A stretch of 62,561 nt of DNA, the filler included, from Dugesia japonica (lineage: Eukaryota), in NCBI GenBank assembly GCA_001938525.1. It is 5 parts of 5 records of this genome, joined end to end, with 100 filler letters (N's around TTAATTAATTAA, not from the genome) between each part and the next. Parts side by side here need not be neighbours in the genome. Positions count along the whole stretch, not along the records: positions 22,499 to 37,330 come from MQRL01611074.1; 4 more parts are not named here. One strand, written 5' to 3'. The notes beneath the pieces were generated by a model that was not told where the DNA came from, made no database searches, and worked only from the letters and a program-made list of their open reading frames with translations. The position numbers and the translations under genes are program-made. Position 1 is the first letter of the stretch. Each line of letters opens with the position of its first letter. Positions 13,924 through 52,852 of the stretch are shown one piece after another.

Positions 13924-15027
13924 GCCAAGAAAGAAGAAGTAGTTCATTTAAAAACTCTAACAAATATATTGAATGAACCAAAGTCTTCAGAATACAGTTG
14001 CCCTCAGTGTAACAAGGGCTATACATTTAAAAAAGCTCTTGTGAATCATTTATATATATGTGATCCAAAATATCAAGAACCGCTTCATTATATTCCTTGT
14101 AACTGTCCAATCCAGAATATTCATTCACTTTGTTCTCTTGATCAACATATTAGTAGTGTCCATGCTGACCAATATCACTATATATGTGGCATTTGTTTCG
14201 TAGAATTGTCTAAATCTGCTGAGTTATTTGAACATTTGTTTTTAAAACATGATTACTTATGGGACACATATAATGAATCTCCAATGGTTAAATTAAAAGA
14301 TGAAAATATTAATTTAAGTAACATGGGAGAAGATACAAATAAAGCTTCAGATTTCACAAGTAAGTATTCTGATGCTGGTGAATCTAGTAATAGTATTTTG
14401 GAAAATTGTCGTTTCGATTCTGAAAACGACGGAACTCCATTAAATCTTAAACCCAGTGTAAAACAAGCTTTCGTTAAATTAAACGATGAAAATATTAATT
14501 TAAGTAACATGGGAGAAGATACAAATAAAGCTTCAAGTGTCACGAGTAGATATTCTGATGCTGGTAATTCTAGTAATAGTAATTTGGAAAATTGTCGTTT
14601 CGATTCTGAAAACGACGGAACTCCATTAAATCTTAAACCCAGTGTAAAAGAAGCTTTCGTTAAATTAAAAGATGAAAATATTAATTTAAGTAACATGGGA
14701 GAAGATACAAATAAAGCTTCAAGTGTCACGAGTAGNTATTCTGATGCTGGTGATTCTAGTAAAAGTAATTTGGAAAATTGTCGTTTACATTCTGAAAACG
14801 ACGGAACTCCATTAAATATTAAGCCCGGTGTAAAACGAGCTTTTAAAGAAATTTCCCAAACAAAAACAAGTTCCTTTAAAAAGCCTAAGTTTGAAATGAC
14901 GAATTGTACTTCATCGAATTCTATCCCCATCGATCTCAACATGATTGTCATTTGTCCGGTTTGTGAAGGTCGGTATTTATCTGAAAAGGTTCTCAAAAGT
15001 CACATGGAGCGATATCATTCTCAATAG
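13924..15027 (+). CDS. C2H2 zinc-finger protein, terminal exon, with three 62-aa tandem repeats
   Basis: Acceptor tttttag|GCC in frame. Fingers CPQC..HLYIC, CNC..HISSVH, CGIC..HLFLKH and C-terminal CPVC..HMERYH. 5' exon not identified. Confidence 0.88.
   Translation, partial: AKKEEVVHLKTLTNILNEPKSSEYSCPQCNKGYTFKKALVNHLYICDPKYQEPLHYIPCNCPIQNIHSLCSLDQHISSVHADQYHYICGICFVELSKSAELFEHLFLKHDYLWDTYNESPMVKLKDENINLSNMGEDTNKASDFTSKYSDAGESSNSILENCRFDSENDGTPLNLKPSVKQAFVKLNDENINLSNMGEDTNKASSVTSRYSDAGNSSNSNLENCRFDSENDGTPLNLKPSVKEAFVKLKDENINLSNMGEDTNKASSVTSXYSDAGDSSKSNLENCRLHSENDGTPLNIKPGVKRAFKEISQTKTSSFKKPKFEMTNCTSSNSIPIDLNMIVICPVCEGRYLSEKVLKSHMERYHSQ
14287..14844 (+). repeat. 186-bp coding tandem repeat x3
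   Basis: GTTAAATTAAA(A/C)GATGAAAAT starts at 14287, 14473 and 14659. Confidence 0.95.
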
Positions 15028-20700: not shown

Positions 20701-21394
20701 TGTAAGTTAGATGAGTTTTCAGAACTCAGATTATCAACATCAAAATTCNACTCCATAAAATTTATTTTAAAATAAAACTATACACATAAATCTGTTTTCA
20801 AAACCAATTAAATAATTCATATTTAAAAACAGAAAATATTTAATTCTTAAATTGTATTAATATCTAATTTTAAAACACTAAAATAAGTATATTCCATTCA
20901 ATTAAATTATATTTTATTTTATTTTATATTTTATTTTGATTTTTTAAATATATTAATATTTAATTTCAAAACACTAAAATAAGCATATTTTATTCATTTA
21001 ATTTTTATTTTATTTAAAAATCTTTTACTTTTAGTAATTTTTTTTATAAATTATTGTTCTGCTACAAATTTAAATATATTTTTGATTTTAATAGATTACT
21101 TTTTAAAAATACCAAAAAATTAAAATCTGTTTTTAAAAAAAACTACCTTATAATGTATATAATCTGACAATTTATTTTGAACTTTATTTTTCGTCTGACA
21201 GTTCATTGTATACTGTATATAAACTTAGATTTCATTTTAATTGTTTATAATAATTCTGATGAATTATTCGATTTGGATCCAATTTATTGATTTGGAGAGA
21301 ATATGGATATTAGCGCACGGGCCATATATTTTGCATGATATAATTTGCAAATATAATTAAAAAATCGAAACTGAAACACAACCCAAGAATTATA

Positions 21395-21466
21395 TTTAAA
21401 ACGCAAGCACCTTTAGGTATCCAATCACAGAAACCAAGACAAAATGTTTGTGGTCCCAAATGCATT
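21395..21466. repeat. dispersed repeat fragment
   Basis: Reverse complement of 50308-50379 (AATGCATTTGGGACCACAAA...AAAGGTGCTTGCGTTTTAAA). Confidence 0.8.
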
Positions 21467-22653
21467 TGTGATGGTAGAAATTTTGAGGTTCTACCCTTTT
21501 TAATTTGATGATTTATGTGATTAAATCTAGGGGGTCGATCTTTATATAAAATCAAGTCTAGGGTCATTGATCTGGTAANNNNNNNNNNNNNNNNNNNNNN
21601 NNNNNNNNNNNNNNNNNNNNNNNNNNNNNNNNNNNNNNNNNNNNNNNNNNNNNNNNNNNNNNNNNNNNNNNNNNNNNNNNNNNNNNNNNNNNNNNNNNNN
21701 NNNNNNNNNNNNNNNNNNNNNNNNNNNNNNNNNNNNNNNNTTCCGTTACTCTATAATTAATTAAAATCCTAATAACTATTTAACAATTGGAAAAACAAAA
21801 GAATTTGTAAGTGAGAAATATATTATGATTTAAATTTCACTTGTGATACCATAATTTAACAATTAACATAATTAACACAACTAACGTGAATAGCATTTAT
21901 GTTCAATAGTGACTTCTGCGGTCCTCCATAATGATTATTCATAATAATCCAGTCGGAAATCGCCGCATCATTTATTCCATTTGTATCAATACTTACTCTT
22001 TGGGCCAGTTCGTTTTAGTTTTCCGTATTAAATTGTAATAATTCCGTATTAAAATTTGCTGATTTTGGTGAAAATCACATCGGTATTTATACCAGTTTTT
22101 TCTACGCCCCCGTTTATTTTATTGACGAAAATAAATTCTCGACGTTTTTATTGGCCATATGGTCACATGCTTTCTTCTTATTGTGGTTATTTTTGGATTT
22201 CGAAATTATTGGCCAACCTTCAAACCCTCATAACTTTTCCCCCTTTTTTGCCATGATTTTCCAACTTTAATTTTCGAATTCAGCGATTTTTTCTCGATCA
22301 GAAGTTTTTAAATTGATGATATTCGCACCACTAGAAGTCCTAATTTTCTTAGTTTTTGTAAAAAATTTAATTTTCTTTTTAAAATAAATCAATTTAATNN
22401 NNNNNNNNNNNNNNNNNNNNNNNNNNNNNNNNNNNNNNNNNNTTAATTAATTAANNNNNNNNNNNNNNNNNNNNNNNNNNNNNNNNNNNNNNNNNNNNCT
22501 GTCTATTTAATTTACCTCACAATGTTGATTGGTCAAATCATAATTGCATATATCTTTATTCCTCCTTTTTAGATTTTCATATTAATAAATATTATGGTTA
22601 TGAAACAGACGTATAACAAATACAAATATCACAATTCAACATAACAAACTCAC

Positions 22654-24691
22654 CTCCTCACAATTTCAATGATAAATTCATCATCAAATTTGTCTTCATC
22701 ATTTGGTTTGTGTTCTCCTCCTGGATTGATGCAATGCAAATATTCCATATCAATACTGAAAACTTTTGCAATTGATTGTTTTGCTGCGATTATTGTTTCT
22801 GGTTTGAATGAAATAAAAAAAATTAAATCTTTCCAGTTTCTTCTTATTTTGATTGGATATTTATTGATTACACTAAATATAACAATTAATCATAAATCTA
22901 TCCAATCAAAATCACTGTTCATCAATCCATTTATTCATCTCAGAATCACTGCAAGATCTCAATAAATATTGATTCATCCATCTAAATGAAAATATTCATC
23001 ATTGGAATATCTCATAATTGCAGCTCACAATCTCAGCCAATATCGCCAATCATTGCGAGAATCATTCAAATATTTCACAAAATAATCCAAACTATCGATT
23101 CTATCAAACAATATCAAATAAATTTATCAATAAATCATTTTATTTTACATGATGTCGCTCACTGATTTAATTGGTTCTATTTTTTTATTTTGTCTGAGAT
23201 TGAAAAGCTTCCATAAAGCTTCTAGAGCTCGCCTGAATCAATCAATATAAAAATAATTTATCAATAAATCATTTCATTTTACACGATGTCGTCCATTGAT
23301 TTATTTATTAATTTTTGTCTGAGATTGCAATATTTCCACAATGAAATTTGTCTGAATCAAATAAATCAATATAAAAAATTTGATTGATATATTCAATAAT
23401 CAATATGAAATGAGGGAGGCCAATCATGACACCAAATATCATTTGATAAATAATATATTGATTCCAATGACCATTATGATTTCTCATATCACCATATTTG
23501 AATGTGATCAATATTGATCTGGGTTGATCACAAATATTAATATTCCAATGATTTGTGCCATCATAATGCCATCCATCATTCATTCAATCAAACTTACATA
23601 GCAAATAGGAAATATTGATCAAATATCCTCACAAAACTAAATGATCAATCAATAACAAATCAATTGTGTCACACACAAATATCAATCTCACTCATTCCCA
23701 TATTGATACCTCAAAGATCTCAAATAATCATTACAAATATCAAAAATGCGATCTGTCATATCGATGCAAAATAGATTTGTCGAATTGATAAATGATGAGG
23801 ACAAATCTGACAAATTTAGATTCAATCTGTCATCAATTATATCATTTGATGAGATAAATAGTCTGCAATAAATTATTATTGATTAATTGTGAAATATTTC
23901 CATCAATCAATCACTTGATTTCATCAATAAGATTTATCAATATTGTTCTTGTTGATTCATTTTTATTATCATCACGAATCTGATCCCAACTATATTTGTA
24001 AAAAACAATCAATAATCACGATATAATCAATGCTAACAACAAATATTGATCCACTCTCCATCTGTCATGCAAATAGCAGCATTCATCAAATGTATTATTT
24101 CTCTCATTTCCTTTTCCATCATCACATCTAATCAAAAATTCAATTAATCAATTAATCCATATTCAAATCCACCTAATAATCAATTTGTAATTCTCATTTG
24201 CGTCAATCTTGGTGACAATTTGATCATTTTTCATTTGTTTGCCATCTGCATTCCAAATATTGATTATTTCAGAATGAATCCTTTCTATTATTGATCTGAT
24301 TGTTGAAATGGTATCATTCATTTTCACAATTAAGTATTCACCACCAAAATTGTGTTCATAATATAACACATCCACAATGACATCATCTTTTCTATAAATA
24401 AAGTCAATCACAAATATTCCATTTACATCAATTAATTTACTTTCTCAAATAATTATCAATTTTACCAAACCAAATTTCATCATTTTCACATATTTTGTAA
24501 TTTTTTATCAAAACATTATTAAATAAAATAATATTTTTATGAATTAATCTGAAATAATATTTTGTAAATTTTCCATTTCTATGAAGAATCTCATCTAATT
24601 TATATTTTATATCTTCCACCATCAAAGATTCATTGATATGAATATCTATTTTTTCATTATTATTTTCTCCATTTATAATAAATAATTTCAT
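22654..24691 (-). CDS. multi-exon gene (possibly disrupted) with two to three ubiquitin-like domains
   Basis: Exon 1 MKLFI..KIDIHINESLMVEDIKYKL..FRLIHKNIIL..IKNYKICENDEIW fits the Ubl pattern. A 49-nt GT-AG intron (24392-24440) joins in frame to ..IVKMNDTISTIRSIIE..DGKQMKNDQIV. More short GT-AG introns with open exons follow. Exon 22654-22872 reads IKIRRNWKDLIFFISFKPETIIAAKQSIAKVFSIDMEYLHCINPGG and ends at gtgagt. Confidence 0.65.
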
Positions 24692-26076
24692 TAATCAATA
24701 ATAAATAATCTTAAAGAAACAATCACAATCAAATTTTCATTTTTAATAAAATATTAATTTAATTAATTTGAATAATTGAATTATGAAAAATTCATTTCCA
24801 ACAGATTTCATACAACTGATAACAACAATTATTAAAATATGAAATATCTAGATTTATACAATTTCTTATAAAATTATTTAATTATACTCAATATTAAAAA
24901 TTCTTTGCTATTATCAAAATTCTTTTAAAATTTATTGATAAAATTGATTCATTATAANNNNNNNNNNNNNNNNNNNNNNNNNNNNNNNNNNNNNNNNNNN
25001 NNNNNNNNNNNNNNNNNNNNNNNNNNNNNNNNNNNNNNNNNNNNNNNNNNNNNNNNNNNNNNNNNNNNNNNNNNNNNNNNNNNNNNNNNNNNNNNNNNNN
25101 NNNNNNNNNNNTAATTTCCTGATTTTAAATAAATTTTTGATTGTTATTGCTATAATTTAACATTTTGAAGATTGGAATATTTTTAATCAATTTGAAATTT
25201 TTTAATTTCAATCAAAATAAATTACAAAATAGAGAAAGGATAAAAGAATATAGAATGTAACTGCCATTTATTATGATTATTAAATGGAGGTGTATACATT
25301 TAAATAAAAATGAACCATTTTTTAGTTACACATTCGTATTTACTCTATTTTTTAGTAATTCTTTATTACATTTCTTGCATTTTACTGTTTTATTTCTAGA
25401 GTTGGAAACCCTTTAGTACAAATATATTAATGTTGAAAACCAATTAAGTAGTTTTGACAATTATTGTTTCCTTATAAAAATATTGAAATAATAGGTAGAT
25501 AGTGGCGCACTGGATCACTTCCACCCGTTTGTAAAAGTTACTACGTAAGTGATTTAGAACTTTTCAGGCTTTTTAAGTGAGACATACAACTATGTGCATT
25601 ACATAATTGGATTAATTTCGTCGGCGACATTAAAGCATAAGTGATTCAGAAAATCACAATGTAAAAAGGCGACGAGCAAAATTTATTTGCGATTAGATAA
25701 CTTTTGCTCTAATTTTTTCTATTTTACCGAATTATTTTCAAATTTTTACCTTTTCAAGTGACAATATTTTTCAAGATTTTTCTAGGCTTTCAGTATTTCA
25801 GTGTTTAATACTTGTACAATAGTTCAACTTTCTGATTTCTTAAACCTTTCAAAAAATCTTGAATCATTATTTTCTCTTTATTTTTATTGATACTCATGGT
25901 TTAATGAATTCGACGTTCACATACTCAATTGATATTTTTTGGTTATCAAAATCAGGCTAAGACTTGACTTCTTTAACTAAATCCCTTCAAAAAATATTTG
26001 AAAAAATTTTACATTTGACTTCTTCAATTAAGTATCGAATTAATTGTTGAAATATTGCTGTTGGGATGAAACACAC

Positions 26077-26444
26077 CACTAAAGAGAAGGCAAAGCCACC
26101 ACAAATTATAAAATGTTAAAAGAAATAAAAGAATCAAAGATTCAGATGAAAAATACACCAAAGATGGTTAAAAGAAAAAGAAGAATAAAACCTGGTTTGG
26201 AATCAATTAGTGGATGCATAAAAATACGAAAAACCAGTGAAAATAAAACCGGATAATCAAAATCAACATCCATCCATTTAAATCAATTAGAAGAAATTAT
26301 AAATTAATATAATTAGAAGAAAAGAAAATATCTAATAAAACATTTAATTATGAGAAAAATATTAATTAATTAAGTGTTAAAATAAATGAAAATTAAATCC
26401 AAATCCGTTTTTTCTAAATATCTTTGCTGTAAAAAATCCGAGGA
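26077..26444 (+). repeat. ~365-bp direct repeat of 26890-27258
   Basis: Near-identical, about 8 substitutions by eye; the copies diverge after AAAAAATCCGAGGA. Confidence 0.95.
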
Positions 26445-26469
26445 AGTAGTAGGAAAGGAGGACACGAGG

Positions 26470-26594
26470 ACAAAGTAGGTCAAAGGGGGACATATCCCCC
26501 GTTGCCATGGCAACCGTCCTTAGCAACGGAAACTAGGTCAGGGTCGTTTTCATAGCAACCAAAAAGTAGGTCCAGGTCATTGGTTACTATAAAT
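26470..26594 (+). promoter_or_regulatory. cluster of RFX X-boxes, AAA(G/C)TAGGTCA nuclear-receptor half-sites and a TATA box
   Basis: GTTGCCATGGCAAC (26501-26514, perfect palindrome), GTCCTTAGCAAC (26516-26527), GTTTTCATAGCAAC (26546-26559); AAAGTAGGTCA (26472), AAACTAGGTCA (26530), AAAGTAGGTCCAGGTCA (26563); TATAAAT (26588). Confidence 0.7.
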
Positions 26595-28113
26595 TGTTTT
26601 GAACTTTAATTAATTTCAATTTACAGAGATTTCACTGCTTTCGACGAGTTCTCGTGACTCCGTCAATGACAAATTTATCTCAAATTTTAAAGCGAAAAAC
26701 TTGTTACCCCTGATAGATGAAACTGAGAAGAACAGTTCTTACACCTTCTATTATAGCTAGACAGCTATAACAGATTAATTATTAATTATTAATTATTAAA
26801 CATATATTAAAATTTACGTTTTAGTTAATGTCTGCGACANNNNNNNNNNNNNNNNNNNNNNNNNNNNNNNNNNNNNNNNNNNNNNNNNNCCACTAAAGAG
26901 AAGGCAAAGCCGCCACAAATTATAAAATGTTAAAAGAAAGAAAAGAATCAAAGATACAGATGAAAAATACACCAAAGATGGTTAAAAGAAGAAGAAGAAT
27001 AAAACCTGGTTGGGAATCAATTAGTGGATGCATAAAAATACGAAAAACCAGTGAAAATAAAACCGGATAATCAAAACCAACATCCATCCATTTAAATCAA
27101 TTAGAAGAAATTATAAATTATTATAATTAGAAGAAAATAAAATATCTAATAAAACATTTAATTATGAGAAAAATATTAATTAATTAAGTGTTAAAATAAA
27201 TGAAAATTAAATCCAAATCCGTTTTTTCTAAATATCTTTGCTGTAAAAAATCCGAGGAGTTCAGCTTAAGGAAATTTCGGAAGGATTCGGAAGGGGTCAT
27301 CATCCAGAATATTCAGGGAGGATCTTGAAAACTGGACCAATGAAATACCTGAAAAATAAATAAAACAAAGGCACAATTATTATGTGCCGTTCCAAAAATA
27401 ACTGCCAATTGAAACTCCAAAACTCTGAAAATATTTCAGAAAATTGGCAATAGGACCAATAAGAAGCGGTGAACTCTAAACTAAAAATAATTAGCAAATA
27501 CGAACAAAGTTAGGGTGCGAAGAAAACCGTATAAAAGAACTCCAAAAATTATTAAAACACAACTACCAAAATTTTCAACTTCAATTTTACAACAACTATT
27601 TTTCGGAAGTTACCATTTTTCAAAGGCAACAGAAGTGTCCACTGAAATCAACCATTTTTCAAATACAACCAAATTATCAACTGTAAACTTTATCAGTAGA
27701 AAATGATTAATAAAAAAGCGAATTCTTGATTGAAAAAGGAGTTTTGATTACTATCCTACTTATCAAAATAAAGCGTAACCCGTTGTCGTGCAACTAGTTA
27801 CCTACTACGACATTAACAAATAAAATTATATTTTTGGATTGTGGTTTAGTCGATAATTTTCCTTGAAAATAGAAATTATCCATATCGTCGAGGAGTATTG
27901 ATTTTATTCGAAAAATTCAATAAACCATTGAAGAATTTCCTGTGAAAATTATTATTAGTAAGTAGTATGTTTAAATTATGATTATCTACATATTAGTATA
28001 AATTAATAAATGTTTCTGATTTTATTTTGGTTAATCGCTGATAAAATTTTTGTATATTTAATAATTAATTAATGTCCTTATACAGTTTACTCAGGATATA
28101 AGCAGGATCTATA

Positions 28114-28330
28114 ATGGGTGTTATTGATAAAATTGATTAAAACATTCATGGAGTATATGTTGCCATGGAAGTGAAAATTTTGCTAACTAGCATTTTAAAT
28201 CAACAATATATTGGGTCAAGCACTTAATTGAGATAATCGTATGCGGTTGATAAACACACCCAGCAGATTAAGTGTGTATTACGATTTTTCAGCACTGAAA
28301 AAATTTACATCATCCATAAGAAGACGAGTA
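28114..28330 (+). pseudogene. cassette copy 1, ORF0 remnant
   Basis: VKIL...(frameshift)YWVKH...RFFS parallels VKILAIQGEMQSHYWVCH...VRFFS in ORF 52983-53252. Confidence 0.4.
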
Positions 28331-28491
28331 TTTTCCTACTATTTTAAAAAATATTTTTAAATTTTTTTCTTGCATTACAATAACCCAGTTCAGTATTACA
28401 AATTTTTCAGGGTTAATGTGAATGTAGCGGAATAAGATAATCTGTTACAAATTCATTCCCATAAATTATATTAAAATTTACGTTTTAGTTA

Positions 28492-28686
28492 ATGTCTGCG
28501 ACATTAAGGAGTACTCTATATTGGATCAAGAAACAACAAGGAAAGGCTTGTCTAAAGCAAAACTTTGCGCACATATTGTCGCGGGGAATAGTGGAGCATT
28601 CGGACGAAACGGATTTGGCCTGTTTCGCCGAGATGTTTCCCGTGCCAGCAAATATGGATTTAGATGCAAAAAAGGGGTTACATTAA
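28492..28686 (+). CDS. cassette copy 1, ORF1 (64 aa, unknown)
   Basis: HILSRGIVEHSDETDLACFAEMFP aligns with HILFNGIIEHPDETDLRCFAEMYP at 54041-54229; preceded by ttttag. Confidence 0.75.
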   Translation: MSATLRSTLYWIKKQQGKACLKQNFAHILSRGIVEHSDETDLACFAEMFPVPANMDLDAKKGLH

Positions 28687-28825
28687 TTATTGCCGAATTA
28701 AATAAAACTTTCTGTCTTGGGTTTTAGTGATCAGGGAGTAATTGTTCTCGAAAATTTTATAAAAAAAAATATATATATTCGTTTCTTTTATTTGTTGTAT
28801 TAAACTAATTTCTATAACTATAGGA

Positions 28826-29203
28826 ATGAAATCCATTTGGGAGCGAATAGTCGATCGGCGAACGCGACGCATCATCTTTCGATGTCATCATAACCCGCAT
28901 AACCGCGATGCAGGTATCTTGGTAGAACGAACTAACCTGCCTCCTGTAGATGCCGTGGTAGCTCGCATTCAGAGCTTCGGGGAAAGATTGGACTACCAAC
29001 AATGGAATGGCCCAACGCGAAATCACACTACCCCTTTTCATTATCAGGCTCCGGCCCCTCTCCCAGTGGTGCAAGCGTTTATCAATAACTTGCTCTGGGT
29101 GTTAGGGAACTCTCGGGGGTTGAGGACACGGAAAACACGGTCCCTGCTACGGACACAGCCTCTAACTTATAGTGCCTATCTTAATTGTCATAAAAATTTA
29201 TAA
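28826..29203 (+). CDS. cassette copy 1, ORF2 (~115-125 aa, unknown)
   Basis: HNPHNRDA, WNGP and AF.NN.LW..NS blocks shared with 54396-54816. A likely late frameshift in the G-run near 29115 restores ENTVPATDTASNL, matching ENTATPSSNS in copy 2. Confidence 0.75.
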   Translation: MKSIWERIVDRRTRRIIFRCHHNPHNRDAGILVERTNLPPVDAVVARIQSFGERLDYQQWNGPTRNHTTPFHYQAPAPLPVVQAFINNLLWVLGNSRGLRTRKTRSLLRTQPLTYSAYLNCHKNL

Positions 29204-29382
29204 ATAAATATGTGTTTCTATTTAATAGTAATCTAATTCATTCTGTTCATTATTTTATTGAGGAAACAAAATTTTTCTTTTGTTTGTTTTTTGTTGTTAA
29301 TAATAATAAAATTGCGGTCTGCTACTAAGGAAACAAGAGTCTCGAGTACTTTCTTAACGTAGTTAATGTATACTCTTTTGCA

Positions 29383-29766
29383 GTGCATTCGTCGCTGAAC
29401 CGCTCTACAGCTCACACCAAAAATATGAGGGATACCAGCGAGGACCAAGAGATGACTTGGGACCTCTACCGGCTTGCGAAGCGACGCTGGGAAGCAGAAA
29501 TAGCCGCCGCGAATAGTAAGGTATCTCGGTACAAGAAAAAGTGTATCGTCTTTAAAAAGGAAGCCGAGGCCTCCTACTTGCAGGAGGGAGCATGGAAAAA
29601 ACAGGTCGAGTCCTTTGCGGAAATCATCCGGTCCAGCCATGGCCGAGAGAATAAACTGGTTGATGATGTCTTACATCTCAGAGAAATGATACCTCTCGAG
29701 CATTTGATGATCATAACCCCGCATGTGTTCTTAAATAAATGTATCACGAATTTGACATTGTTTTAG
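29383..29766 (+). CDS. cassette copy 1, ORF3 (charged, predicted coiled-coil; begins at a splice acceptor)
   Basis: ttttgcag|TG CAT. VHSSL...QEMTWDLY..KRRWEA...SKV.RYK.KC.VFKKE.EAS is shared with 54982-55324. Confidence 0.75.
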   Translation: MHSSLNRSTAHTKNMRDTSEDQEMTWDLYRLAKRRWEAEIAAANSKVSRYKKKCIVFKKEAEASYLQEGAWKKQVESFAEIIRSSHGRENKLVDDVLHLREMIPLEHLMIITPHVFLNKCITNLTLF

Positions 29767-29816
29767 TATCTGATACTTCTGATTAAACTATCTGTTCATT
29801 AATTTAATTTCTTTTA

Positions 29817-30152
29817 GTGCCCCGCATCAACTTTCCCAATAGTATTCGTAGATGTCATCGCATAATGCGCCGTCTGCTTCTAGAGCGCCACTTAAAGCAG
29901 AAAGCTGATAGGGCATTGATTAAACATCTTGACCAGCGAGATCGTCTGATCAAAAAACTTGATCAGATTGTGAAAATGCAGCATGACCTGGCAGTGCAAG
30001 CCAAAGCATTTGAAGATGAAAATAAATTGTTGCTTCAGAGGAAAGTTGATTTTCTTAAGCAATATATATCCGACCTCTCCCGTCAATTTGGAAACCCTAC
30101 TGGGTCCAATGGGACGACAACGACGATGTCGCCGCCTTCAATTTCTTGGTAA
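29817..30152 (+). CDS. cassette copy 1, ORF4 (basic N-terminus, predicted coiled-coil; begins at a splice acceptor)
   Basis: cttttag|TG CCC. VPRI...HRI...LLLERH.K....RAL..HL is shared with 55488-55605. Confidence 0.72.
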   Translation: MPRINFPNSIRRCHRIMRRLLLERHLKQKADRALIKHLDQRDRLIKKLDQIVKMQHDLAVQAKAFEDENKLLLQRKVDFLKQYISDLSRQFGNPTGSNGTTTTMSPPSISW

Positions 30153-30439
30153 CCGACCCAGATCAGTGGTTAGATCCTAGCGCGTTGGGAGAGATGTAAT
30201 TGTTATGATAATAGAACTTTTTGACTAGTTTTCTTTGCATCGTATGTACAAGTTAAGGGAAAGATATGGACCCAAACTATAGGTGTACGGGTGTGCACCT
30301 CTCATAAAGTAAGAGGTCAACCCCCCTACACTGAAAGCCTAAATAAGGGACTTTAGGTTAAATTCTTGAAGGGGTCCTCTGAGGGCTGTTTTTCCCCAGC
30401 CTCAAGTTTTCATCACTCAACTCAGGTGGAACCCCAACA

Positions 30440-31925
30440 TTGCGAATAAAGTTGCTATTGAATCGATTGAATGTGAAGATTGTGTGGTGGAAGAAATATA
30501 AGATGAAAACATTATATAATGAAGTAATGCACTCTATGAGAATGGAGATAGAGATTATGTATATAATAATCAGAGTTACAAATGACAATATAAACATAAA
30601 TATAAAGAAGGATTTAAAGGTTTCAAATCTAATGGAGTTGGATACATTGCAAAATTCTGTAAAATTAATAAGTTTTTCAACAATGGAGAAAATCATTTAA
30701 TAAAATTTAGGGAAAACAAAAACTTTCAGTATTGTTAAACAGAAGACGATGGAAATATCTCAAATATACAATGTAGAAGAAAATACTTCAAAAGATTTAA
30801 TATTCAATATTTTTAATGAAATTATTAGCTCGAAAACGATTCAAAAGACTTCAGATTATTTGTAAGATTATTCATCAGGAAAACCTCAATTAAACATGCG
30901 TGGTCATCAAATAGAACCAAAAGACTTTAGCGGGTTTTCCAGAAAAGACAGATGTATTGGATAATTATGTAAGTTATATTAATGAACACGGTGTAAAGCC
31001 CAAATCAATAATTAGAAAATATGAACCTAATTTGATTTCAATGTCAAGAAAGGAAGTTACAAGAATTAAACGCATTGTTGAATGTCAACTAAAAGAAGAG
31101 GAAATCCGAATAATGTTCGATATTTGTGCTGATCTCAATGTAATCAACGAAACATTAGCAAAAAGATTAGTGAAACAAAATTATGATCTGAAAATTCAAA
31201 ATTCGACAACTAGAGTGACTTGTGAGAATGGAAACTTAGTAAATTGTTTAGAAAAACTAACTCTAAAAGAGACTTATTAATAAGTGTCAGTTTGGTGAAG
31301 AGTTATTCTAGATATATTCTTATCAGAATATACATACTCAATGGAGGATCTAAAACCTTGTATACAGAAACAACTTTAGGTTGTGTGGAACGATTGGAAG
31401 AAAATATAACAAAAGAAGATTTATACCTCAGAAATTTATCGAATTATCAAATCAAGGTTGATAATTCAGATACTGCCAGAATTTTGAATGATATTGAATT
31501 GCAACTGAAAAATGAAAGAAAAGAATCGAAAATTATGGCACTAATGAGAATAATTGTATGATAATTTAAATGTTTTCAGTAAGCATAAAATGAATATTTA
31601 AAGAACAAATGCCATTTAATATGCTTTAGAAACAAAGAATGATTTTTTCATAGTATTTAAACCCCAAAAAAAACCAAAATGTGTAGAAAATAAAGTTTGA
31701 AAAAAATTAAAGAACTTTAAGAAAACGATAATATAAGAGAAAGTACTCCACTTAGTTTCCCACCTGTGTTTGTTAGAAAAAGGAATGAAGAAATAAGAAT
31801 GTGCGTTGATTATAAGTCTTAAAATGCAAAAATATCTTGACCAATTTTTACCATTCCATCTGCTAATGAATTATTTGATACAGTTTCTGATTCAATTTAT
31901 TCCGCAAGTCTAGATAAGGAATCTG
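30440..31925 (+). mobile_element. degenerate Ty3/Gypsy (gag?)-protease-RT fragment
   Basis: Retropepsin-like EIRIMFDICADLNVINETLA; RT start IRESTP..PPVFVRKRNEEIRMCVDYK..F.IPSANELFD....SLD, with stops and frameshifts. The gag assignment for 30440-30950 is positional only. Confidence 0.85.
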
Positions 31926-34899
31926 ATAAGGAATTTGAATGCATAACATTGCGCGGCTTTACTTTGCGTGTCTATTGATACCAAATTTGTGACTGTTTAA
32001 TAAGAATTGTAGATATGTTGGGTTGCCAGGCTTTTGATGTTGATTTATACTCGATCTCCTGAGTTTTATTACCATTCTTCTGATCACCATTTTCGTTTTC
32101 ATAGATATAATTTCTGTCTGGGGATGATACCCAGCAACCACAGAAATTTGTGTTACTCTTTCTAATAACACGATCCCCCATTTCCCGGATTCAGCGGGAC
32201 TATGCTGTATCCCGTCTTAGGTTCCAATTTCTATCCGGCTCTCGTTTTATAATTAAACGTCATTAGCCATTATTAACTCCTGCTATAATCAAAAATTGAG
32301 AAATACAATCTGTACAAAATTTTATTCGTATCCATATTTATNNNNNNNNNNNNNNNNNNNNNNNNNNNNNNNNNNNNNNNNNNNNNNNNNNAAATACAAT
32401 CTGTACAAAATTTTATTCGTATCCATATTTATCACCCGTCCAATGTTTCTCATGCATCCAATTCAGTGACTTCCTGAACTGCTCCCTTTGAGATTCCATT
32501 CTCCGACTTCGAAACTTGTGCTATGTCGTGTATTTTATTGCGAGACATCCATCCTTCTCCGAATAACGACTGATCCATTAGCCAGCTTCGCTATCAATGA
32601 TATAAACATTTTAAATATTCGTATCATAATTTCTCTAGAATAATAAATAAATAACGATTGATAATAAAATGAGTAATATTTTCATAAACATTCACAATAT
32701 ACGTAATATAATAATTAACATAAGCAGTTTAATAAATATTTCATCAGAGTCAAGATTAATAAGAGTCAGAATCCAATTAATCAGTTAGGATTCAACCACC
32801 CCACCACTCGTAGTCATAGACATTCAACTTTCATATTTTATAACCATTTATACACACTGATAGTTTTATTTGTTTTCTTCTTCATTTAAATCAACTAAAA
32901 CATGACTTTTAATTCAATACTTTATTTCAATTACAATTAATTCTTTTTTGAAATTCTTCTTTCCTTTTGAACGCTTCTTTCAAAACTTGCCTTTCTAAAT
33001 TTATATTTTTGAATAAATAATAAATTTAAATAAATTTATTATATTTATTAAAAATATATTTTTTAAATCTAAAACTTCGAATTTACACTAATTTAAAAAA
33101 TAAAGCAATAAATTTTAATTATTAAAATTTTTTATAATTATTTACATTAAAAAATTTAAGCTAATAACATTGCATTAAATTTTTAAATATTTGCAAATTT
33201 TTAAAATTACCTAACACACACTATCATTCGTTCATAATTCATCTCTCATATCCTTTTAGATAATCACTTCATTTTACTTCTCGAACCATAATACAACATC
33301 TTTCATCTTTCATCTCTCACAACTCGCAGTCTTTCATAAACATCTTTCAGAAATCTCTCTCAACTTTTTATAAATACCTTTCTCAGCTTTTATAATCTTT
33401 AACATCTTTTATCCCTCATAATATAATGGTGGATGATCTCCCCAGGAAGTAGCTGATAAGATGGACCGTCAGAGATAGCAGAACTACCCTCAGACTATCC
33501 ATCCTTCAGTGTCTTCCAAATAAAACCAGTTAAAAATAACATAACATAAAAATAAAAAGAATCCTTACTTCTTCTTCGGCTAGTTGTTCCAATTAAATTG
33601 CTAATGGTGTTTCAATGGAAATTTTTAAGAGTGTTTTTCTAATGATTTTGATTTCCTTTTTTTCCTCACTCTATCGTCAAATTTTGACTGATACAGTTGG
33701 CGTCCACTTCAGATTTCTGTTAATACAAGAAATCGTACGTTGTTCACCCGTAGCTTCTACAGAGATGTCTAAATATGGGCGTGATTATTTTTATTTTTTT
33801 TTAATTCTGTAGTGGATTATGTGCTCACAGATGTTCTATGTGTTTTTCCTCAAGTGGAGAGGCTTAAAAAAAAATTTCTGAAACTTGTAAGTGTTTTAGA
33901 AATAGCGATAACTCCACAATCACATACAAATATAAACATATCAATCCTATATTCTCACAAAAAATCATCATATCTTCTACATATAAGTTTCGGTTATAAT
34001 TCTTCCGGGTTCATTATAAATAATAATATTTATTGAATAATAATAATTTTAATTATATTTATCGATAATAATAATAATTTCTCATTTTATATTTTTTATA
34101 AAATTATAATAATAATGTTATTCTTGTACTTAAACCTGACTCATAATCTATTATTTTATTATTTATAACGATCATGATAATTTATTCTGTTTTTCCTCCT
34201 ATAATTTCTCTCTAAAATATCAAAATATTTTAATATAATTATTTGTTTTAATCTTTCTTTTTCTCTCATCAATATACTTTTATTTTTAACACATGGATAC
34301 TTTCAACACATTTATACAAATTATAAATAATAATAGATATTCCTTCTTGTATTACCATTCTTCTTTTCGATCCCTTTGACTTATTTTCTGAGCACATTTT
34401 ACCTTAGCCATCTAATTATTGATTATCTTCANNNNNNNNNNNNNNNNNNNNNNNNNNNNNNNNNNNNNNNNNNNNNNNNNNNNNNNNNNNNNNNNNNNNN
34501 NNNNNNNNNNNNNNNTAGATTTTGTTTGATATTTCTTACACTTTTTAACTTCAGTTATTATTATTTAATAATCGTTTCCTTATTATTTCATAGGTCAATA
34601 TTTCTTTTATTTCTCATTATTTATTTATTTATTATTTTTTTAATTCATTTTCTTATTACTCTTTAATTTATTTCCTTCTATAATTTTCATATTTTACAAA
34701 AGGCTGTTTAAGCCCAACAGATAATACAAACGAAAAACAAAAAAAATTGATGACCTTGAAAAAATTTTCCCTAGGGAGGGAGGTGCGGTTGAAAAAATAA
34801 AAGTATAATTATTTTAAATAAAATTCTATGACCTTGAAAAAAAATTTTAAAAAATAAAAAAATTTCAAAAATAAAAAAAAATCCCCTAATTTTTTTAGC

Positions 34900-34950
34900 A
34901 ACGAAGGGGGAGTGCAGTAATGCTGACATTTCTCATTACTTATTATTGAA
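34900..34950 (+). mobile_element. polypurine tract plus LTR start
   Basis: GAAGGGGGAG-TGCAGTAATGCTGACATTTCTCATTACTTT matches AGGGGGGGGGAT-TGTGGCATGCTGACATTTCTCACTACTTT at 43796-43836. Confidence 0.6.
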
Positions 34951-35514
34951 CTTATTAATTAAAGACGATATTTTAACTTTACACAGTCACTTTTTCCTCC
35001 TGAGTAAAATGATATCAAATTTGAGTCGATAGCAGTTATCTGTACACAGGGATCTGAGCGCTTAACTCTGAAATTTGAAATTTTTTCACAAGAAAAACCC
35101 ATCTATTTCCTCGAATATTAACTTTGATGATTTTAGGTTAACATATTTGGAATTAGCGAAAACTTCTCTATCGAATAGACACTTTCTTAAGCTATTTTGA
35201 GAAGAAAATATTTTCGAAAAATTTTCATTTGTGAAAATCGATTGCCGTAAAATTCTTAGCAGTTTGATATCAAAATCTTTGAAATCTGAAATATAGAACA
35301 TATTTTTTCAAAAATGTAGACTGTTCACTCAAATTCCCATAAATATTTCATTGAAAAAATTTTAAATTTTCAAATAATTTAAACCACATTTACGGTTTAA
35401 CTGAATTCCTATAAAAAAAATTTCCCACCTAAAAAAGCCAAAATAATTTTCCTAACTAAATACACAGGGGAAAATCAAACCAAATTACCACTTAATAAGC
35501 CTAAAAATTTTACG

Positions 35515-35600
35515 AAATAAATCCATAGGAAAATACATAGCCACTTAATCCCATTTCGTGATATCACATAATATGATGTCATTTTTTAAGTTTCATTACA
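35515..35600 (-). repeat. LTR-like dispersed repeat
   Basis: Reverse complement matches 44983-45090 (TGTAA...AAATGACATCATATTA...ACGAAATGGGATTAA). Confidence 0.6.
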
Positions 35601-37589
35601 TCACTAATCAGTCGGGCGGGGTTTACTGAATGTGTGCTGGCTATATACACTACTATCCGTCTACTGCCCTCAACTCAAATACGTCAAATTAATACTTCTT
35701 CGGTTTCTTTCAACTCATAAACTTTAAATAACTTTTCTGGAGTTTCTTTCAACTAGTATCGTTATTAAAATGATTTTATTTTATCAGAACTGTGGTAAGA
35801 AAATGTAGCAGGATTTTACTTAAAGTGTAATACCAAACTTAAAATAACGAATGATTCAAAACTTTAACAAGAGATTATCAACTCAAAATCTAATTATATT
35901 TGGTCTGAAAACCCGCTTGATTTTAAACTGATTTAATAGGTTTTATTATTTTGATTCCACTTGATTTGCGGCACCAAATTTCTTTCGTATTTAAACTTAA
36001 AATTATTTTAAAATTTTTTCGAAAAAATTTTGTCAATCAATATTAATTTTATCTGTTGTAATTCAGTATTTATTGTTATTAGCTATTTGTATAAAAGTAT
36101 TTCGCTTTATAATTAAAATGTGTGGCTACGATAATATGTTAAATTATAGGTGATTTAGATACAGTTATAATTGTAGGTTTTATAGAAAATAATGAACAAT
36201 TACTTTATAAAAACTTTATTTTTAAAAATCGGCGTTACAGTAGTTATAATTTTATTTTCAAGCTGCTCGTCAAAGGAGTTAGTTGTAAAATTATAAAAAA
36301 TTTTAAGCGTAATTTTCTACAAGATTGTAACACTCATACACTATTTGTAATTGATCAAAAATTTTCGACAATATTATGTACATTTACAAAAAATCAATTT
36401 TTCTTTGCAAATAAATAACTCTTTTTTTTGATTAATAACAACTGGTTTTTTTGATACAATTCGTTTAAATATAATTTCTTTAGTTTTTCAGTTCTTTCTT
36501 TTATTTTATCGTTGACTGCATTGCCCTCACTAAATTTCTCTCCAGTTGATTTTTCTGCATTCAGTATGTTCCATTTTTACCTTTATTCATATTAATATTC
36601 TCACTTTATTTAACTTTTCTCCGTTGTTGGTCCAATAAATTTTCTATAATTTACTTATTCTTTATTTTTTAATTTATTTCTTTTCATTTCTTGTCCCTTC
36701 TTCCTTCTCTATCTACTTTGTTTACTCGTGACGATAATTTATATTTGTTATAGCCCAACACTTAGATTTTTAAAAATATTTTTATTATCACTGTTGATGT
36801 AAATTGACATCACAATTGTTAACAAGTCATGCCTTCCCAATTTAAATGAATTAAATTACCTGTCTTTTGGTGAAAGTAAATAACAAGAAAACTACAAATA
36901 AAAACATGATATAGCGAGGCCATATCAGTTACTTACCTGCCTTCATTTATTTCTTTCCTTAATTATGTCTACTTATCTTCTGCTTTTCTGTTTCCTACTG
37001 CGTTTTTATTTGTGTATTTTGTTAAATATAATCTTCTCATTAGAATTTAAATCCTTTTTTTGTTGTATAAATTAAATATTTAAATTCAATTATTTGTCCT
37101 GAGACTTTATGATCTATTTGTTTAGGTATCTTTGATAAAAATTAAATATTTTTATATTAAAAAAAGTGGAAAAATTAATATGTATAATTATCAGTTTGAA
37201 CATTTCTACACGTGAATATTTATCCGTGTTGACTTTTATCACAAATCGATTGAAAATTATTACTTTATTATATTCTAAACAACAAAATGAATTTCTATTT
37301 TTTATTTATTTGTCTTGATTAAATTTAATTNNNNNNNNNNNNNNNNNNNNNNNNNNNNNNNNNNNNNNNNNNNNTTAATTAATTAANNNNNNNNNNNNNN
37401 NNNNNNNNNNNNNNNNNNNNNNNNNNNNNNATAATAATAATAGCAATAATAATAATAATTATAACGATTCTCTGGATAATATTTCTGGCCCAGTTCATCA
37501 ATTTTGTGTCGATTATTTACTATTCTATCCGTTTTCATTATTCTCTATTTCTTTATTACCTTGAGTAATTTTGGTGTTCCAGCCCAACA

Positions 37590-38767
37590 ATTCTAAGTCC
37601 ATTGGTTTCCTATAAGGTTTAACATTGATTGGTTCACCACTTGTTATTATTATGTGTCTTGCTAGAATTGTGCGTCCTACATCCCATTTATCTGCCATAA
37701 AAGCATATTTTCGACTTTCAATTATTTTCAATAACCGTTGATCGTTTTTATTCTTCAAAGCATTTAAGGCTCTTGTCAATAGCTCTCCTTTTTTAATTTT
37801 TCTTCAAAATATCGTTTTAATATTGCAAATGTAATTTTCAACTTTTTTATCCGCTTTTCAATCAACCTTTTGCTTAAGCTGATATCGAAAGATTTTATGC
37901 ATATCTATTCCTTCTATCAGATCTGGTGTCACTCTTTCAGCAACTAAGAAAGTAATCTCTTTGCAAACTTCATCAATTATCACTCCAGTTCTAACTTTCC
38001 TAACAATTTCAAGTGTACTTTTATTTGCACAACTCAATCTTTCATCACTCATTTCGAAATGTACTTTTCATAATTTATTAAAAATACTCAAATTCATCAC
38101 ATTAATTCGAGCCACTGTATCTAATAGACATTTGACTTTATTTTCTTGAATTGATACCGTAAAGCTTGGTCTGCCTTGCAATTTATGGTACGAAATATTT
38201 GTTTTCTGTTTTGATTCAACTGTTTCAACATATTCTACTTTTCTATCATCCACAAAAAGTTTCCCTCTTTATGAACCTTAATACTTTTTCTGTAGCTTTA
38301 CCGATATCATAACAATTTTCAACACCTTGAGGATAATTACTGACTTTATTTAACAATATAGATGGCTTCAACCAACTCCCCTACTAATAAAACCTTCTAA
38401 TATAGCCAACTTTTCAGCAACCAACAAATTTTGTTGGTTTTTTATTTAGACAATCTCGACTTATATGTCCTTTTTATGACAAGTCCACACTCTACTACTT
38501 TTTTTAGTCAAACAATTTACTTTAGTGCGACCAGTCTGATAACAAAACCAACATTTGATATTTTGTTTTTCCTTTCTTTGACCCACATATCAATTTACTG
38601 TAAAATCTTAAACTTTCTGATAACTTTGACTTGTAACTCTTGCGTAACTACTAACTGCATCAACTTGAACTCTGTTTTCTCTACTCGATTTACAAACACC
38701 ATCGTTTTTTCAATTTCTTCTATATTTTGTTGTTTCCACAAAGTAACTTCTTCCTCAACTTTTTGTA
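37590..38767 (-). mobile_element. degenerate Ty3/Gypsy gag-protease-RT start
   Basis: Two CCHC-like knuckles (KCWFCYQTGRTKVNC; frameshifted ECWTCHKKGHISRDC), protease KVKCLLDTVARINVM, RT lead-in DVGRTILARHIIITSGEPINVKPYRKP. Confidence 0.9.
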
Positions 38768-40131
38768 GTCTTCCCCAATAAAATCGCGTTTAAAAATTTA
38801 ATTATTTTTGATTACTTAATCGACTATGGAATAATTTCATTGATTACGTAATCAATTTCATAAATTTACCAGTTTTATGATTCTCCTTTGCACAATATTC
38901 GTCCTATAAAAACACTATTGTTATCAATAGACGCGCAATGTTATGCATTTAAAATTTTAGTTGGATGGGAGGGGGATAAAAAGTTATTAAAGATACAAAT
39001 TTAAAAACACCACTATTTTGAAAGATTTCAGTTAGAGATTTTTACCAATCTTCCTAAAATAAAAAACTACCTGAAAAATAAACTAAATACTTGTGTCAAA
39101 AAATGCTCCGGTTCAGCACAAACGGTATGTTAGTATGATATCACCCCTGGTGACAACCGATTTGGATGAAAATTTATGGTTAGATAAAAATTAAAAAGGA
39201 AGATAGGAATATATTATAAAATCGTATCCTAAAATGCTTCCTTTCCACAGAATAAGGTTTTTTGTTTATATATTCAAGAAGATACATGATATCGCACAGC
39301 ACTTGATTTTGCAAGACGCGCAAAACATTGGCGGACAAATTTGCGTATGAAAATTCTCATGTGACATAATCATAAAAAGTTATTAAAAAAAGAAATTTTA
39401 AAAGGAGCACACAGCCGTCATTTTTAATTTTTACTCTTGTAAAATTTGATAAAGAATTAAAAACAATCTATACATTACATTAAAGACTACTATCGTAAAG
39501 TTGTTTGTTTCGATAAAATTTAGTTATCAAAAGCATAAAGTAGAACAAAAAGTTTTTTTATTTGAAATTTTTTTTATTTGAAATATTTTTGATACACTAC
39601 TAAAGATAAAAAATAAAGTCTGTTTAAATTAAAATTTATTTATTGACATAAATTTGATAGATAGTGGCATGTTGTAACAGACTTTTTAAAATGTATGCTA
39701 TGATGACAAACTTGATATCATTGAAATTGTAATTAGATGACGGACAGCACTGTTATCTCAGAATTTCAATCTGACCTATTGGTAAGGCGTTATTAAAGAT
39801 TTNAAAATTTTAAAACTATGTACAGACACGAAACCATAATATATTTGAGAATAATGTGATACTAATCGATAGAGAACCAAAAACTACCTATGTATTGTCT
39901 AAAAAAGCCCATATCGAAAAATGCATGCTTTACAAGAAAATCAATACACAAAGAACTTTTATATTTTTTAAAAGTTTTTTTGTTATCATTTCACTATCAA
40001 ACAACTTTCGCTTGTATACAAGGCCCATTTGCTTTTGGTTACAAGGCCATTTTGTTTTCTTGTATGAAGTTCTAATAGATTACGTAATAAAAAATAATTA
40101 AGTTTTTAAACGCGATTTTATTGGGGAAGGA
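38768..40131. mobile_element. non-autonomous DNA transposon with ~50-bp TIRs, possible TA target duplication
   Basis: CTTCCCCAATAAAATCGCGTTTAAAAA at 38770 is inverted at 40103-40129; TA lies just outside both ends. Confidence 0.7.
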
Positions 40132-49129: not shown

Positions 49130-50205
49130 CTTATTTTTTAATATTTCTTTATATCCTCCTTCTTAATAACTTTCTAAGCTTTCTTATTTCTCTGTAATCT
49201 CTTGCCATTTTCTCATTGCACTGCATACCGTCTTTCGTGAATTTTCTCAATTATTCGATAAGGGCTTTCACATTTGTCTTTGCTTTTATTTCTTGTTTCT
49301 ATCTTAATGAGAACATAATCTGCTACTTTGAAATCTCCATTTGTAGTCACTTTTGTTTTCTTAAGTGATTCCTAACTTTCTATGCTAATTTTCTTTCAAA
49401 TTAAAATCTCAACGGGCTCTTTTCAGTTGTCTTCTGCTTTGTTTTGTTCATTGTCAATTCAATTTTCTACTAAAAATGTCTGCCTAATCTATTGTTTTAA
49501 TCTCCTGAAGTGTTACATTAATTAAATCTTTAATTGTCCTGAACTATCTATTTATTTTTTCGTTTGTAGTTTAATGATATGGACTCGAAAAGTACGGCTA
49601 AATGTCTAACTTCTGTACCAACTTTCTCATAAGTCTGGATTCAAAGGCTTTGCAACAATCTAGCCTTATTTCTCTTGAACATCCAAATCTCAATATCTAA
49701 CATATCTGCATTACCATGTTGAATTCGTTTTCTATATTCTAAAACCATGTCTTAACTACTCAGATAATTAATCCATTTCCGGAATTGTGACGCAATTGGT
49801 TTCGTCGTCGTCATCACGAAAGTGCATCTTTCTACAACCAAAACTTTTTGTTGTTTTCTATCTAGACAAACTTAACTTATATGTCCTTTTTATAATAATT
49901 CCAATATTCTACTACTTTTTTTGTTGGACAATTTGCTTTAGTATGACCAATCTTATGGAATAGCTAATATTCAATATTTCACTTTTCTTTTATTTGGTCT
50001 GTACTGTATGATTTACAGGTTTCTGATAATTTCGACATGTAACTCTCGCGTTACGTCTAACTGCACCAACTTCCGACATTTTTCTCGTTTTCTTTACGCA
50101 ATCTACTAACACTATTGTTTCTTCATTATCGTCTATATTCTGCTCTTTCCAAAAGTTCACTTCTTATTCAACTTTTTTGCTATCTGAACAATATACTAGC
50201 ATCTT
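49130..50205 (-). mobile_element. degenerate Gypsy element (gag joined to the end of RNase H)
   Basis: 49830-50175 is homologous to gag at 38410-38765; PIASQFRKWINYLSS*DMVLEYRKRIQHGNADML marks the RNase H end. Confidence 0.8.
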
Positions 50206-50599
50206 TGNNNNNNNNNNNNNNNNNNNNNNNNNNNNNNNNNNNNNNNNNNNNTTAATTAATTAANNNNNNNNNNNNNNNNNNNNNNNNNNNNNNNNNNNNN
50301 NNNNNNNAATGCATTTGGGACCACAAAAACTTTGTCTTAGTTTCTGTAATTGGATGCCCAAAGGTGCTTGCGTTTTAAATAAATGTTTTACATGGTTTCA
50401 TAGTACTTTAACATGATTTTCTATTATTTTCAATGGTTCCTATAAATATTCGTCTTGAAATGTTGAATAATAATTATAATAATATTACTCATGTAAATTA
50501 AAATAATAATTTTAATAATATTATTGATGTATTCATTAATTATTCGATAAAGTCCTTAAAGCCAGTATAAAGTCCCAATAAAACAATTTTGAACATATT

Positions 50600-52851: not shown

Positions 52852-52852
<1 letters not shown>

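Follow-up and report, generated by a model that had tools for sequence, protein, structure and literature searches.

A cassette of small open reading frames (ORFs) lies in two diverged, collinear copies within a 62,561-nucleotide stretch of DNA from Dugesia japonica (assembly GCA_001938525.1), referred to here as the window. It consists of a hydrophobic ORF on the minus strand followed by four ORFs, ORF1 to ORF4, on the plus strand. The locus raises the question of whether these are traces of a decaying repeat, ordinary host genes or genes carried by a mobile element and, in the last case, which part of the element they occupy. An earlier note on this DNA proposed a dispersed, once-selected module of a mobile element or an endogenous virus. 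The mobile-element part of that proposal is borne out by purifying selection on the proteins, spacers that cannot be aligned, high abundance in genomic DNA, decay of the individual copies and an apparent insertion into a Gypsy remnant. We conclude that the cassette is real: a module of several genes, once under selection, that belongs to a very abundant mobile element.

Purifying selection on collinear copies

The window is 73% AT and is made of scaffolds joined through N44-TTAATTAATTAA-N44 linkers at 13574, 22443, 37375 and 50252. The last two linkers lie between the two cassette copies, which are thus on different scaffolds, as had been stated before. The copies were compared in all six frames (scaffold 22499-37330 against scaffold 50308-62561). 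The interval 25900-30152, treated previously as one copy, turned out to hold two, named here 1a and 1b, with an assembly gap between them. Copy 1a is a separate partial copy (25112-26839) that stops at a contig end at 26839; its segment 26076-26444 duplicates 26890-27258 of copy 1b over 369 bp at 97.8% identity, and is followed by a block of about 350 bp that aligns with neither copy 1b nor copy 2. Copies 1b and 2 both contain stops or frameshifts, and copy 2 ends inside ORF4. A third lineage is represented by a distant ORF4-like exon on another scaffold (20463-20276, minus strand; tblastn E 9e-5, 27% identity over 37 aa, found by tblastx as well), so that two partial copies, this exon and copy 1a, are added to the two described earlier.

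ORF1-4 follow one another in the same order and on the same strand in copies 1b and 2 (tblastn E 9e-16, 4e-9, 6e-32 and 2e-10), share 48-67% of their amino acids, and contain all four peptide motifs quoted in the earlier note. Third codon positions have diverged most, as that note described: the 268 codons that could be aligned are identical at 0.65, 0.76 and 0.44 of their first, second and third positions, respectively (Fisher p=6e-13). When the four ORFs are pooled, the proportion of synonymous differences (pS) is 0.77, i.e. saturated, and that of nonsynonymous differences (pN) is 0.28, giving a pN/pS of 0.36 (95% bootstrap CI 0.30-0.44); two ORF3 blocks in which dS is finite yield ratios of 0.14 and 0.06. 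These values come from local alignments, which favour conserved blocks, though the positional pattern is not accounted for by that preference. The four spacers tested (ahead of ORF1 and between ORFs 1-2, 2-3 and 3-4) align no better than shuffled sequence, the real score being reached in 48-98 of 200 shuffles. Plain repeat decay was expected by the earlier note to show as a dN/dS near 1 with equally conserved spacers, and the opposite was found on both counts. ORF1-4 are under purifying selection.

Individual genes differ in their state of preservation. ORF1 is open in both main copies (28492-28686, 64 aa, in copy 1b; 54041-54229, 62 aa, in copy 2), and has no paralogue elsewhere inside the window. 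ORF2 of copy 1b, with the HNPHNRDA, WNGP and NNLW motifs, spans 28826-29203; another frame, which closes at 29172, looks like the tail of the copy 2 protein, and ORF2 has probably been frameshifted near 29115 in this copy. Its counterpart (54396-54816) carries an early stop and a frameshift near 54540. The ORF3 exon, with the QEMTWDLY motif, occupies 29384-29766 in copy 1b and 54983-55324 in copy 2, the latter with a stop and a frameshift near 55215. ORF4, predicted to be a basic helical protein, is covered by the exons at 29818-30152 and 55489-55604, homology ceasing near 55604; its C-terminus is uncertain, as a GC-rich frame (30059-30199) overlaps it.

The minus-strand region is homologous between the copies as well: three blocks score above all of 200 shuffles each, and the minus-strand match has an E of 9e-7. 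In copy 2 one minus-strand frame (51263-52072) has 7 stops in about 270 codons where the remaining five frames have 16-26, a count as low as 7 being seen in 8 of 1000 shuffles, or in 32 of 1000 when the frame is stretched to 313 codons. Copy 1b keeps a decayed version at 26890-27615, and copy 1a the decayed 3' part at 25926-26444 (both minus strand). The antisense ORF reported before thus holds, as a decayed frame of about 270 codons, while its hydrophobic character is partly compositional: T-richness contributes to it, and segments resembling transmembrane helices were equalled in 65 of 300 shuffles. The sense ORF0 of the earlier note fared worse. The block taken for it (27328-27615 in copy 1b, 51911-52202 in copy 2) scores 98 and 81 in the minus-strand frame and at most 59 in any plus frame; the minus frame gives the better alignment, which leaves an ORF0 on the plus strand without support, and the block probably belongs to the antisense ORF, to judge from these frame scores.

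Between the antisense ORF and ORF1 the middle regions (27600-28470 and 52200-54030) align at shuffle level only. Copy 2 is about 1 kb longer than copy 1b ahead of ORF1 (52640-53900), and this stretch has several GC-richer islands and short ORFs; two of the latter, at 52938-53252 and 53670-53885, may be more decayed micro-genes, with no homologue in the window. A 74-bp piece is common to 21393-21466 and 50308-50381 at 92% identity, located about 900 bp ahead of the third ORF4 exon in one case and of copy 2 in the other; it encodes a peptide containing Cys and Trp that has no Pfam match.

Abundance and nature of the element

DNA run X1 yielded 5663 contigs matching 26890-32341, neighbouring repeats included, of which 553 are at least 99% identical to the window, 1345 lie at 95-99%, 2863 at 90-95% and 902 below 90%. 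Summed contig depth, a qualitative measure and not a copy number, was 11,276 in the ORF1 bin, 5,383 and 31,458 in the ORF3 bins, 1,416-2,971 over ORF4 and beyond, 24,741 over 30348-30529, 74-506 over 27436-28527 and 49-525 in the neighbouring Gypsy remnant; the single long contigs listed have a depth of 5-13. The cassette family is very abundant and comprises many lineages.

It could be argued that such broken and hardly transcribed copies represent a non-coding repeat in plain decay, or members of some ordinary family of host genes. Neutral decay is excluded because pN/pS is 0.36 with saturated synonymous sites and the spacers are unalignable, and both the high abundance and the frequent breaks speak against host genes, so that we attach almost no weight to this explanation.

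ORF1-4 were described as richer in GC and CpG than the host genes. Their GC content is indeed higher (43-49% against 28-31% in three host ORFs), with a GC at third codon positions of 0.44-0.59, and a TMEM129-like host exon, at 43% GC, resembles them. The CpG part of the claim fails: the observed-to-expected ratio is 0.93-1.15 in ORF1-4, 0.95 in the window and 1.14 in a host kinase gene, which means no enrichment past GC content.

The contrast in GC with host genes, together with the lack of any retroelement enzyme gene linked to the cassette, would suit cargo or accessory sequence in a mobile element of non-LTR type or in an endogenous DNA virus (Polinton, Helitron or other; LTR, long terminal repeat), the CA end discussed below being then coincidental. 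Searches for relatives among viral contigs were blank for ORF3 (0 of 9) and ORF1 (0 of 55), as were those in PHROGs (0 of 6); no transposase, polymerase or capsid family appeared among 54 window ORFs scanned, and the debris around the cassette is of Gypsy type. Such an origin appears improbable to us. Placement of the cassette in an LTR retroelement, at whichever position, is by contrast probable.

Other protein searches were equally unproductive. No cassette ORF reached a curated Pfam cut-off in scans of 54 and 11 window ORFs. A search of 5.8 billion proteins, limited to those of near length, gave nothing for ORF2 (0 of 11 candidates) or for the ORF4 alignment (0 of 4), a profile hidden Markov model of ORF3 had no match among 1.84 billion representatives, metagenomes contained no relative of ORF3 (0 of 185), and tblastn of ORF1 against phages found none. 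In the ESM Atlas the best value for ORF2, 0.83, is at chance level, and ORF4 had no match. AlphaFold models were of low confidence (pLDDT 49.5 for ORF2 and 54.6 for ORF1, the latter predicted helical), and Foldseek retrieved nothing from the PDB for the ORF2 model at E<=0.001. These blanks are weak evidence of novelty because the host kinase, used as a control, was also without a match at E<=1e-40 among 7998 candidates; the host's proteins are probably absent from the collection, and the failure to find a host gene family related to the cassette is to be read with the same proviso. Literature searches, whose scope did not extend to Repbase or to Grohme 2018 and its Extended Data, retrieved no paper describing ORF1-4 or the antisense ORF; the ORFs may already have been drawn in that work or annotated in Repbase.

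Position of the cassette and its predicted expression

On its right side the cassette terminates in ...CCAACA, i.e. in CA, at 30439. A single 269-nt contig from the neighbouring gag matches the window only from position 30439 on, with 74 letters of different sequence ahead of that point; a 3' CA end is thus present at an insertion junction, in one contig and one copy. What follows (30440-31900, plus strand) is a separate element in the same orientation, a decayed gag with a zinc-knuckle remnant, a protease and the start of a reverse transcriptase, recognized by motifs and by a Pfam Asp_protease_2 match (E 0.002, below the curated cut-off). From this junction we infer that 30439 is the 3' end of an LTR inserted into an older Gypsy element. 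The LTR that holds the cassette, either a 3' LTR or a solo one, would then measure roughly 4-5 kb, and in lineage 1, that of copies 1a and 1b, the element would measure about 4.4 kb if 25256 were its left end. Our preferred interpretation, which we hold to be somewhat better than an even chance, is that the cassette is an accessory micro-gene array located in the LTR of a giant Gypsy-like element and expressed as alternative terminal exons.

Two other landmarks were considered here and dropped. An LTR start at 30196, after GGGAGAGA, falls where that stretch closes the open GC-rich frame at 30059-30199, and has no other support. The AATAAA at 30445 as poly(A) signal of the element was set aside, as its position falls in the neighbouring gag.

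Alternatively, the cassette could belong to the internal region of a giant LTR retroelement. In one version of this explanation the element is read from the minus strand and 30436-30426 is its primer-binding site for tRNA-Gln; the hydrophobic ORF would be the sense gene, and the 5' leader would contain ORF1-4 as accessory genes in antisense. The 11-mer at 30426-30436 equals the 3' 12-mer of tRNA-Gln (PMC13524379 supplement 1) minus one base, and is the sole such hit on either strand of the window. Precedents exist in the available parts of the published accounts, to which all our comparisons with described systems are confined: accessory ORFs of Burro lie within a 25-kb internal region (PMC6431247), and LTR elements of plants often carry additional ORFs in antisense (PMC7264820). 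Against this stand the facts that a single tRNA type was scanned and sequences close to one tRNA end or another are not rare, that no LTR follows on the right, where an unrelated gag starts 3 nt on, and that the piece would need to have been broken at CA by chance. We regard the internal position as unlikely. An RNA-gene scan found no tRNA gene, Rfam gave four sub-threshold matches only (in 25112-32341), and three motifs had no match in two of the three files of a planarian tRNA supplement (PMC7962491).

The arrangement of signals around ORF1-4 suggests how an array in the LTR could be expressed. A T-rich YAG precedes each ORF. ORF1 and ORF2 each contain an ATG, located 2-17 nt past the AG (AG at 28487 and 28822 in copy 1b; at 54026 for ORF1 of copy 2), and in copy 1a the ORF1 acceptor and first codons (26801-26839; AG 26823-26824, ATG 26828) are identical to those of copy 1b. 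AATAAA occurs 15-44 nt past the stop in five of six cases for ORF1-3, one of them by way of an alternative ORF2 stop (window background 3.6 per kb); in copy 1b it lies 15 nt past the ORF1 stop and at 29203 for ORF2. ORF3 and ORF4 are built differently. Homology begins exactly at the AG, in phase 1, in all five exons; in the four checked there is no in-frame ATG upstream of the AG, ORF3 of copy 1b included; and in all four exons of the two main lineages the AG (29382-29383 and 29816-29817 in copy 1b, 54981-54982 and 55487-55488 in copy 2) is followed directly by TG. The terminal segment of the presumed LTR (30200-30439, plus strand), in which the tRNA-Gln-like 11-mer and the AACA end also lie, contains a candidate donor, A|GTAAGA, with its GT at 30309, the only canonical A|GTAAG donor in 30150-30445.

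In the full element this donor would belong to the 5' LTR, and a leader whose last base is A could be spliced to each of the acceptors. The leader would supply the A of the ATG for ORF3 and ORF4, whereas ORF1 and ORF2 would use their own start codons, and each message would terminate at its own poly(A) site. That the start codon of ORF3 and ORF4 is split in this way stands, on the exon borders seen in DNA, at roughly even odds. The proteins would be regulatory or accessory factors of the element itself, comparable to Cer1 CERV, the MDG1 sORFs and MMTV Sag, and the element would be silenced in normal tissue. By analogy only, the small basic proteins might be nuclear regulators of the element's RNA, and the antisense protein might have a membrane role.

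The same element could, however, start its proteins otherwise. ORF3 and ORF4 might be alternative last exons behind a phase-1 intron and a shared, short coding first exon that contains the ATG, a proposal that concerns the mechanism alone and overlaps with our preferred interpretation. The third ORF4 exon, preceded by an AG at 20465-20464, argues for it, as it keeps the codon phase and begins with GG; moreover, in other subclades of insect endogenous retroviruses splicing joins env to a Gag peptide or to a short peptide encoded upstream (bioRxiv 10.1101/2023.08.03.551782). TG past the AG in four of four ORF3 and ORF4 exons, in two lineages with saturated synonymous sites, argues against it, and the third exon is a single, perhaps decayed, copy. 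A shared first exon is a fair possibility, but we consider it the less probable arrangement. Exons of one protein were rejected as an explanation of ORF1-4: a separate stop closes every ORF, most are followed by an AATAAA of their own, and inspection revealed no shared phase-1 donor.

An acceptor and a poly(A) signal for each ORF would equally be the layout of an operon, and flatworm spliced leaders end in ATG (PMC12582326), so a polycistronic unit resolved by trans-splicing, with the terminal AUG of the leader as start codon, deserves mention. A start of this kind is disfavoured for ORF3 and ORF4 because a leader ending in ATG would join at phase 0, whereas all five of their exons are in phase 1, so that translation would miss the selected frame; nor do these ORFs carry a conserved ATG close to where they begin. 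We judge trans-splicing very improbable.

Several observations weigh against placing the array in the LTR with a leader spliced to its genes. The right end is drawn from one contig and a CA dinucleotide. The candidate left ends, 25256 and 51118, come from a near-chance alignment (12 of 200 shuffles), the purine run ahead of 51118 sits in a 16-bp tandem repeat, and each copy in the window lacks at least one end. Neither a 5' LTR end nor a target-site duplication was found in the window, and paired LTRs and a linked gag-pol were likewise missing there. A strict acceptor rule was passed by three of eight correctly indexed sites (background 0.3%); the relaxed rule, passed by nine of ten (background 0.7%), was loosened after the data had been inspected. 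The donor at 30309 is present in one copy, with no transcription start mapped upstream of it, and the third ORF4 exon, starting with GG, would not yield an ATG, which favours the shared coding first exon. Matching RNA reads were few in three runs (57 of 13,591,480, 7 of 11,583,297 and 2 of 10,544,396, from about 25%, 25% and 6% of the runs, respectively, and counted without a host-gene control); among these 66 reads none had an identity of 99% or more, nearly all were partial, and no RNA joint was seen. Among indexed sequencing runs, none of RNA was listed as containing the cassette, an outcome that speaks neither way.

Copy 1a differs from the other copies in a promoter-like block (26445-26640, plus strand). 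It contains X-box motifs at 26501-26514, a perfect palindrome that corresponds to the RFX X-box motif quoted in PMC4168999, at 26516-26527 and at 26546-26559, and a TATAAA box at 26588-26593; the cluster lies about 240-330 bp upstream of ORF1 and is found in this copy only. The X-box pattern has 8 matches in the window against 2.5 expected, the palindrome being counted on both strands, and copy 1b has an X-box with two mismatches at 28159, at a similar distance from ORF1. In its most elaborate form, our proposal would make the LTR a miniature gene cluster: four micro-proteins and an antisense membrane protein, one leader, alternative 3' splice and poly(A) sites, two start codons created by splicing, and a swappable RFX X-box promoter module that retargets expression to ciliated or sperm-forming cells, each solo LTR being a self-contained expression unit. 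As a whole this is speculative, and we think it rather doubtful. Just upstream of the copy 1a ORF1 acceptor, 26643-26777 (minus strand) gives a weak match to the 5' half of U2 snRNA (23.9 bits, E 0.12, gathering score 46), perhaps a chance resemblance or a captured fragment.

Comparison with known elements and neighbouring sequences

The closest parallel in scale is Burro/GYPSM1, a giant Gypsy-like element of planarians, more than 30 kb long and with LTRs, present in thousands of copies, which has accessory ORFs besides its polyprotein (PMC6431247). That polyprotein is a gag-env-pol product of 4,873 aa with BIR, BCL2, MATH and ankyrin domains, the accessory ORFs lying upstream of it (PMC6431247); Burro and other Gypsy elements are de-repressed on loss of PIWI (PMC8532177). 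As with Burro, the cassette family is very abundant in an AT-rich host, and decayed copies are common. In contrast to the cassette, the available description of Burro (PMC6431247), which is all that could be compared, mentions no micro-gene array in the LTR, and the portions of PMC11410931 and PMC13238120 at hand add nothing further on its structure. None of the BIR, BCL2, MATH and ankyrin domains was found by Pfam among the 54 and 11 window ORFs, in scaffolds that are short and copies that are truncated.

Elements of the proposed organization are known separately. The U3 of MMTV has an ORF (Sag/Naf) and a further promoter within the LTR (PMC9412291); the likeness is one of layout, a protein-coding ORF inside an LTR, with no sequence similarity claimed, and MMTV, a vertebrate retrovirus, has one such ORF region, whereas the cassette has four sense genes and one antisense gene. 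In Drosophila errantiviruses of the springer subclade, env obtains part of its start codon when it is spliced to an LTR-proximal exon further upstream (bioRxiv 10.1101/2023.08.03.551782); there the codon is split as AU|G in a single env gene and mapped on RNA, while here the split would be A|TG, in two small genes unrelated to env, and is deduced from DNA only. The sORF1 and sORF2 of the MDG1 group are under selection, with alternative polyadenylation after sORF1 (PMC11952523), and CERV of Cer1 is made from a spliced mRNA (PMC10309623). Like them, ORF1-4 would be small selected accessory proteins of an LTR retrotransposon; unlike the cassette, the MDG1 sORFs are situated ahead of gag and expressed without splicing, and MDG1 and Cer1 have one or two genes in place of an array, with no homology shown. 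Finally, the plant elements Grande, RIRE2 and Retand have conserved extra ORFs on the opposite strand (PMC7264820), resembling the cassette in a conserved antisense ORF of unknown origin, but these lie between pol and the 3' LTR and are usually one or few.

Control of RNA export and of cell-to-cell spread has recently been traced to accessory genes of LTR retrotransposons such as CERV and sORF2. If the proposal is true, a single very abundant element with five unrelated genes under selection would have one of the most complex accessory repertoires outside the vertebrate complex retroviruses, and none of the five protein families in the cassette has known relatives. Every solo LTR left behind is a potential expression unit if the LTR houses the array. 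This biology is likely limited to one lineage, and the functions and expression are predicted only. What the window adds is a pooled estimate of selection, a candidate right end, the GG counter-example and a swappable X-box block, and, beyond the earlier reading, the acceptor and poly(A) architecture as well as that right end and the two partial copies.

Further remnants surround the cassette. An integrase-like remnant at 31975-32600 (minus strand) was recognized by eye from motifs, with no Pfam hit; summed depth in run X1 is 49,000-56,000 over 31986-32341, as for a very abundant element, and most of the few RNA reads fall there. More decayed Gypsy-type gag, protease and integrase remnants lie at 37528-38789 (minus), 42209-43500 (plus), 964-1215 (minus) and 49829-50177, identified by Pfam matches to rve and Integrase_H2C2 below the cut-off and by one repeat pair. 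Upstream of copy 1a, 23000-24700 (minus) is a decayed coding-like region rich in Asp, Ile and Asn, with a weak ubiquitin-like match at 24440-24694 (E 0.022).

Further coding sequences, host genes among them, are found elsewhere in the window. The kinase used as a control is an intronless ORF of 505 aa (5972-7489, plus strand; Pfam Pkinase E 1e-29), and the TMEM129-like sequence is a C-terminal exon at 57192-57590 (minus strand; Pfam Tmpp129 E 1e-33). A C2H2 zinc-finger ORF at 13924-15027 (plus strand) has three tandem repeats of 186 bp, or 62 aa.

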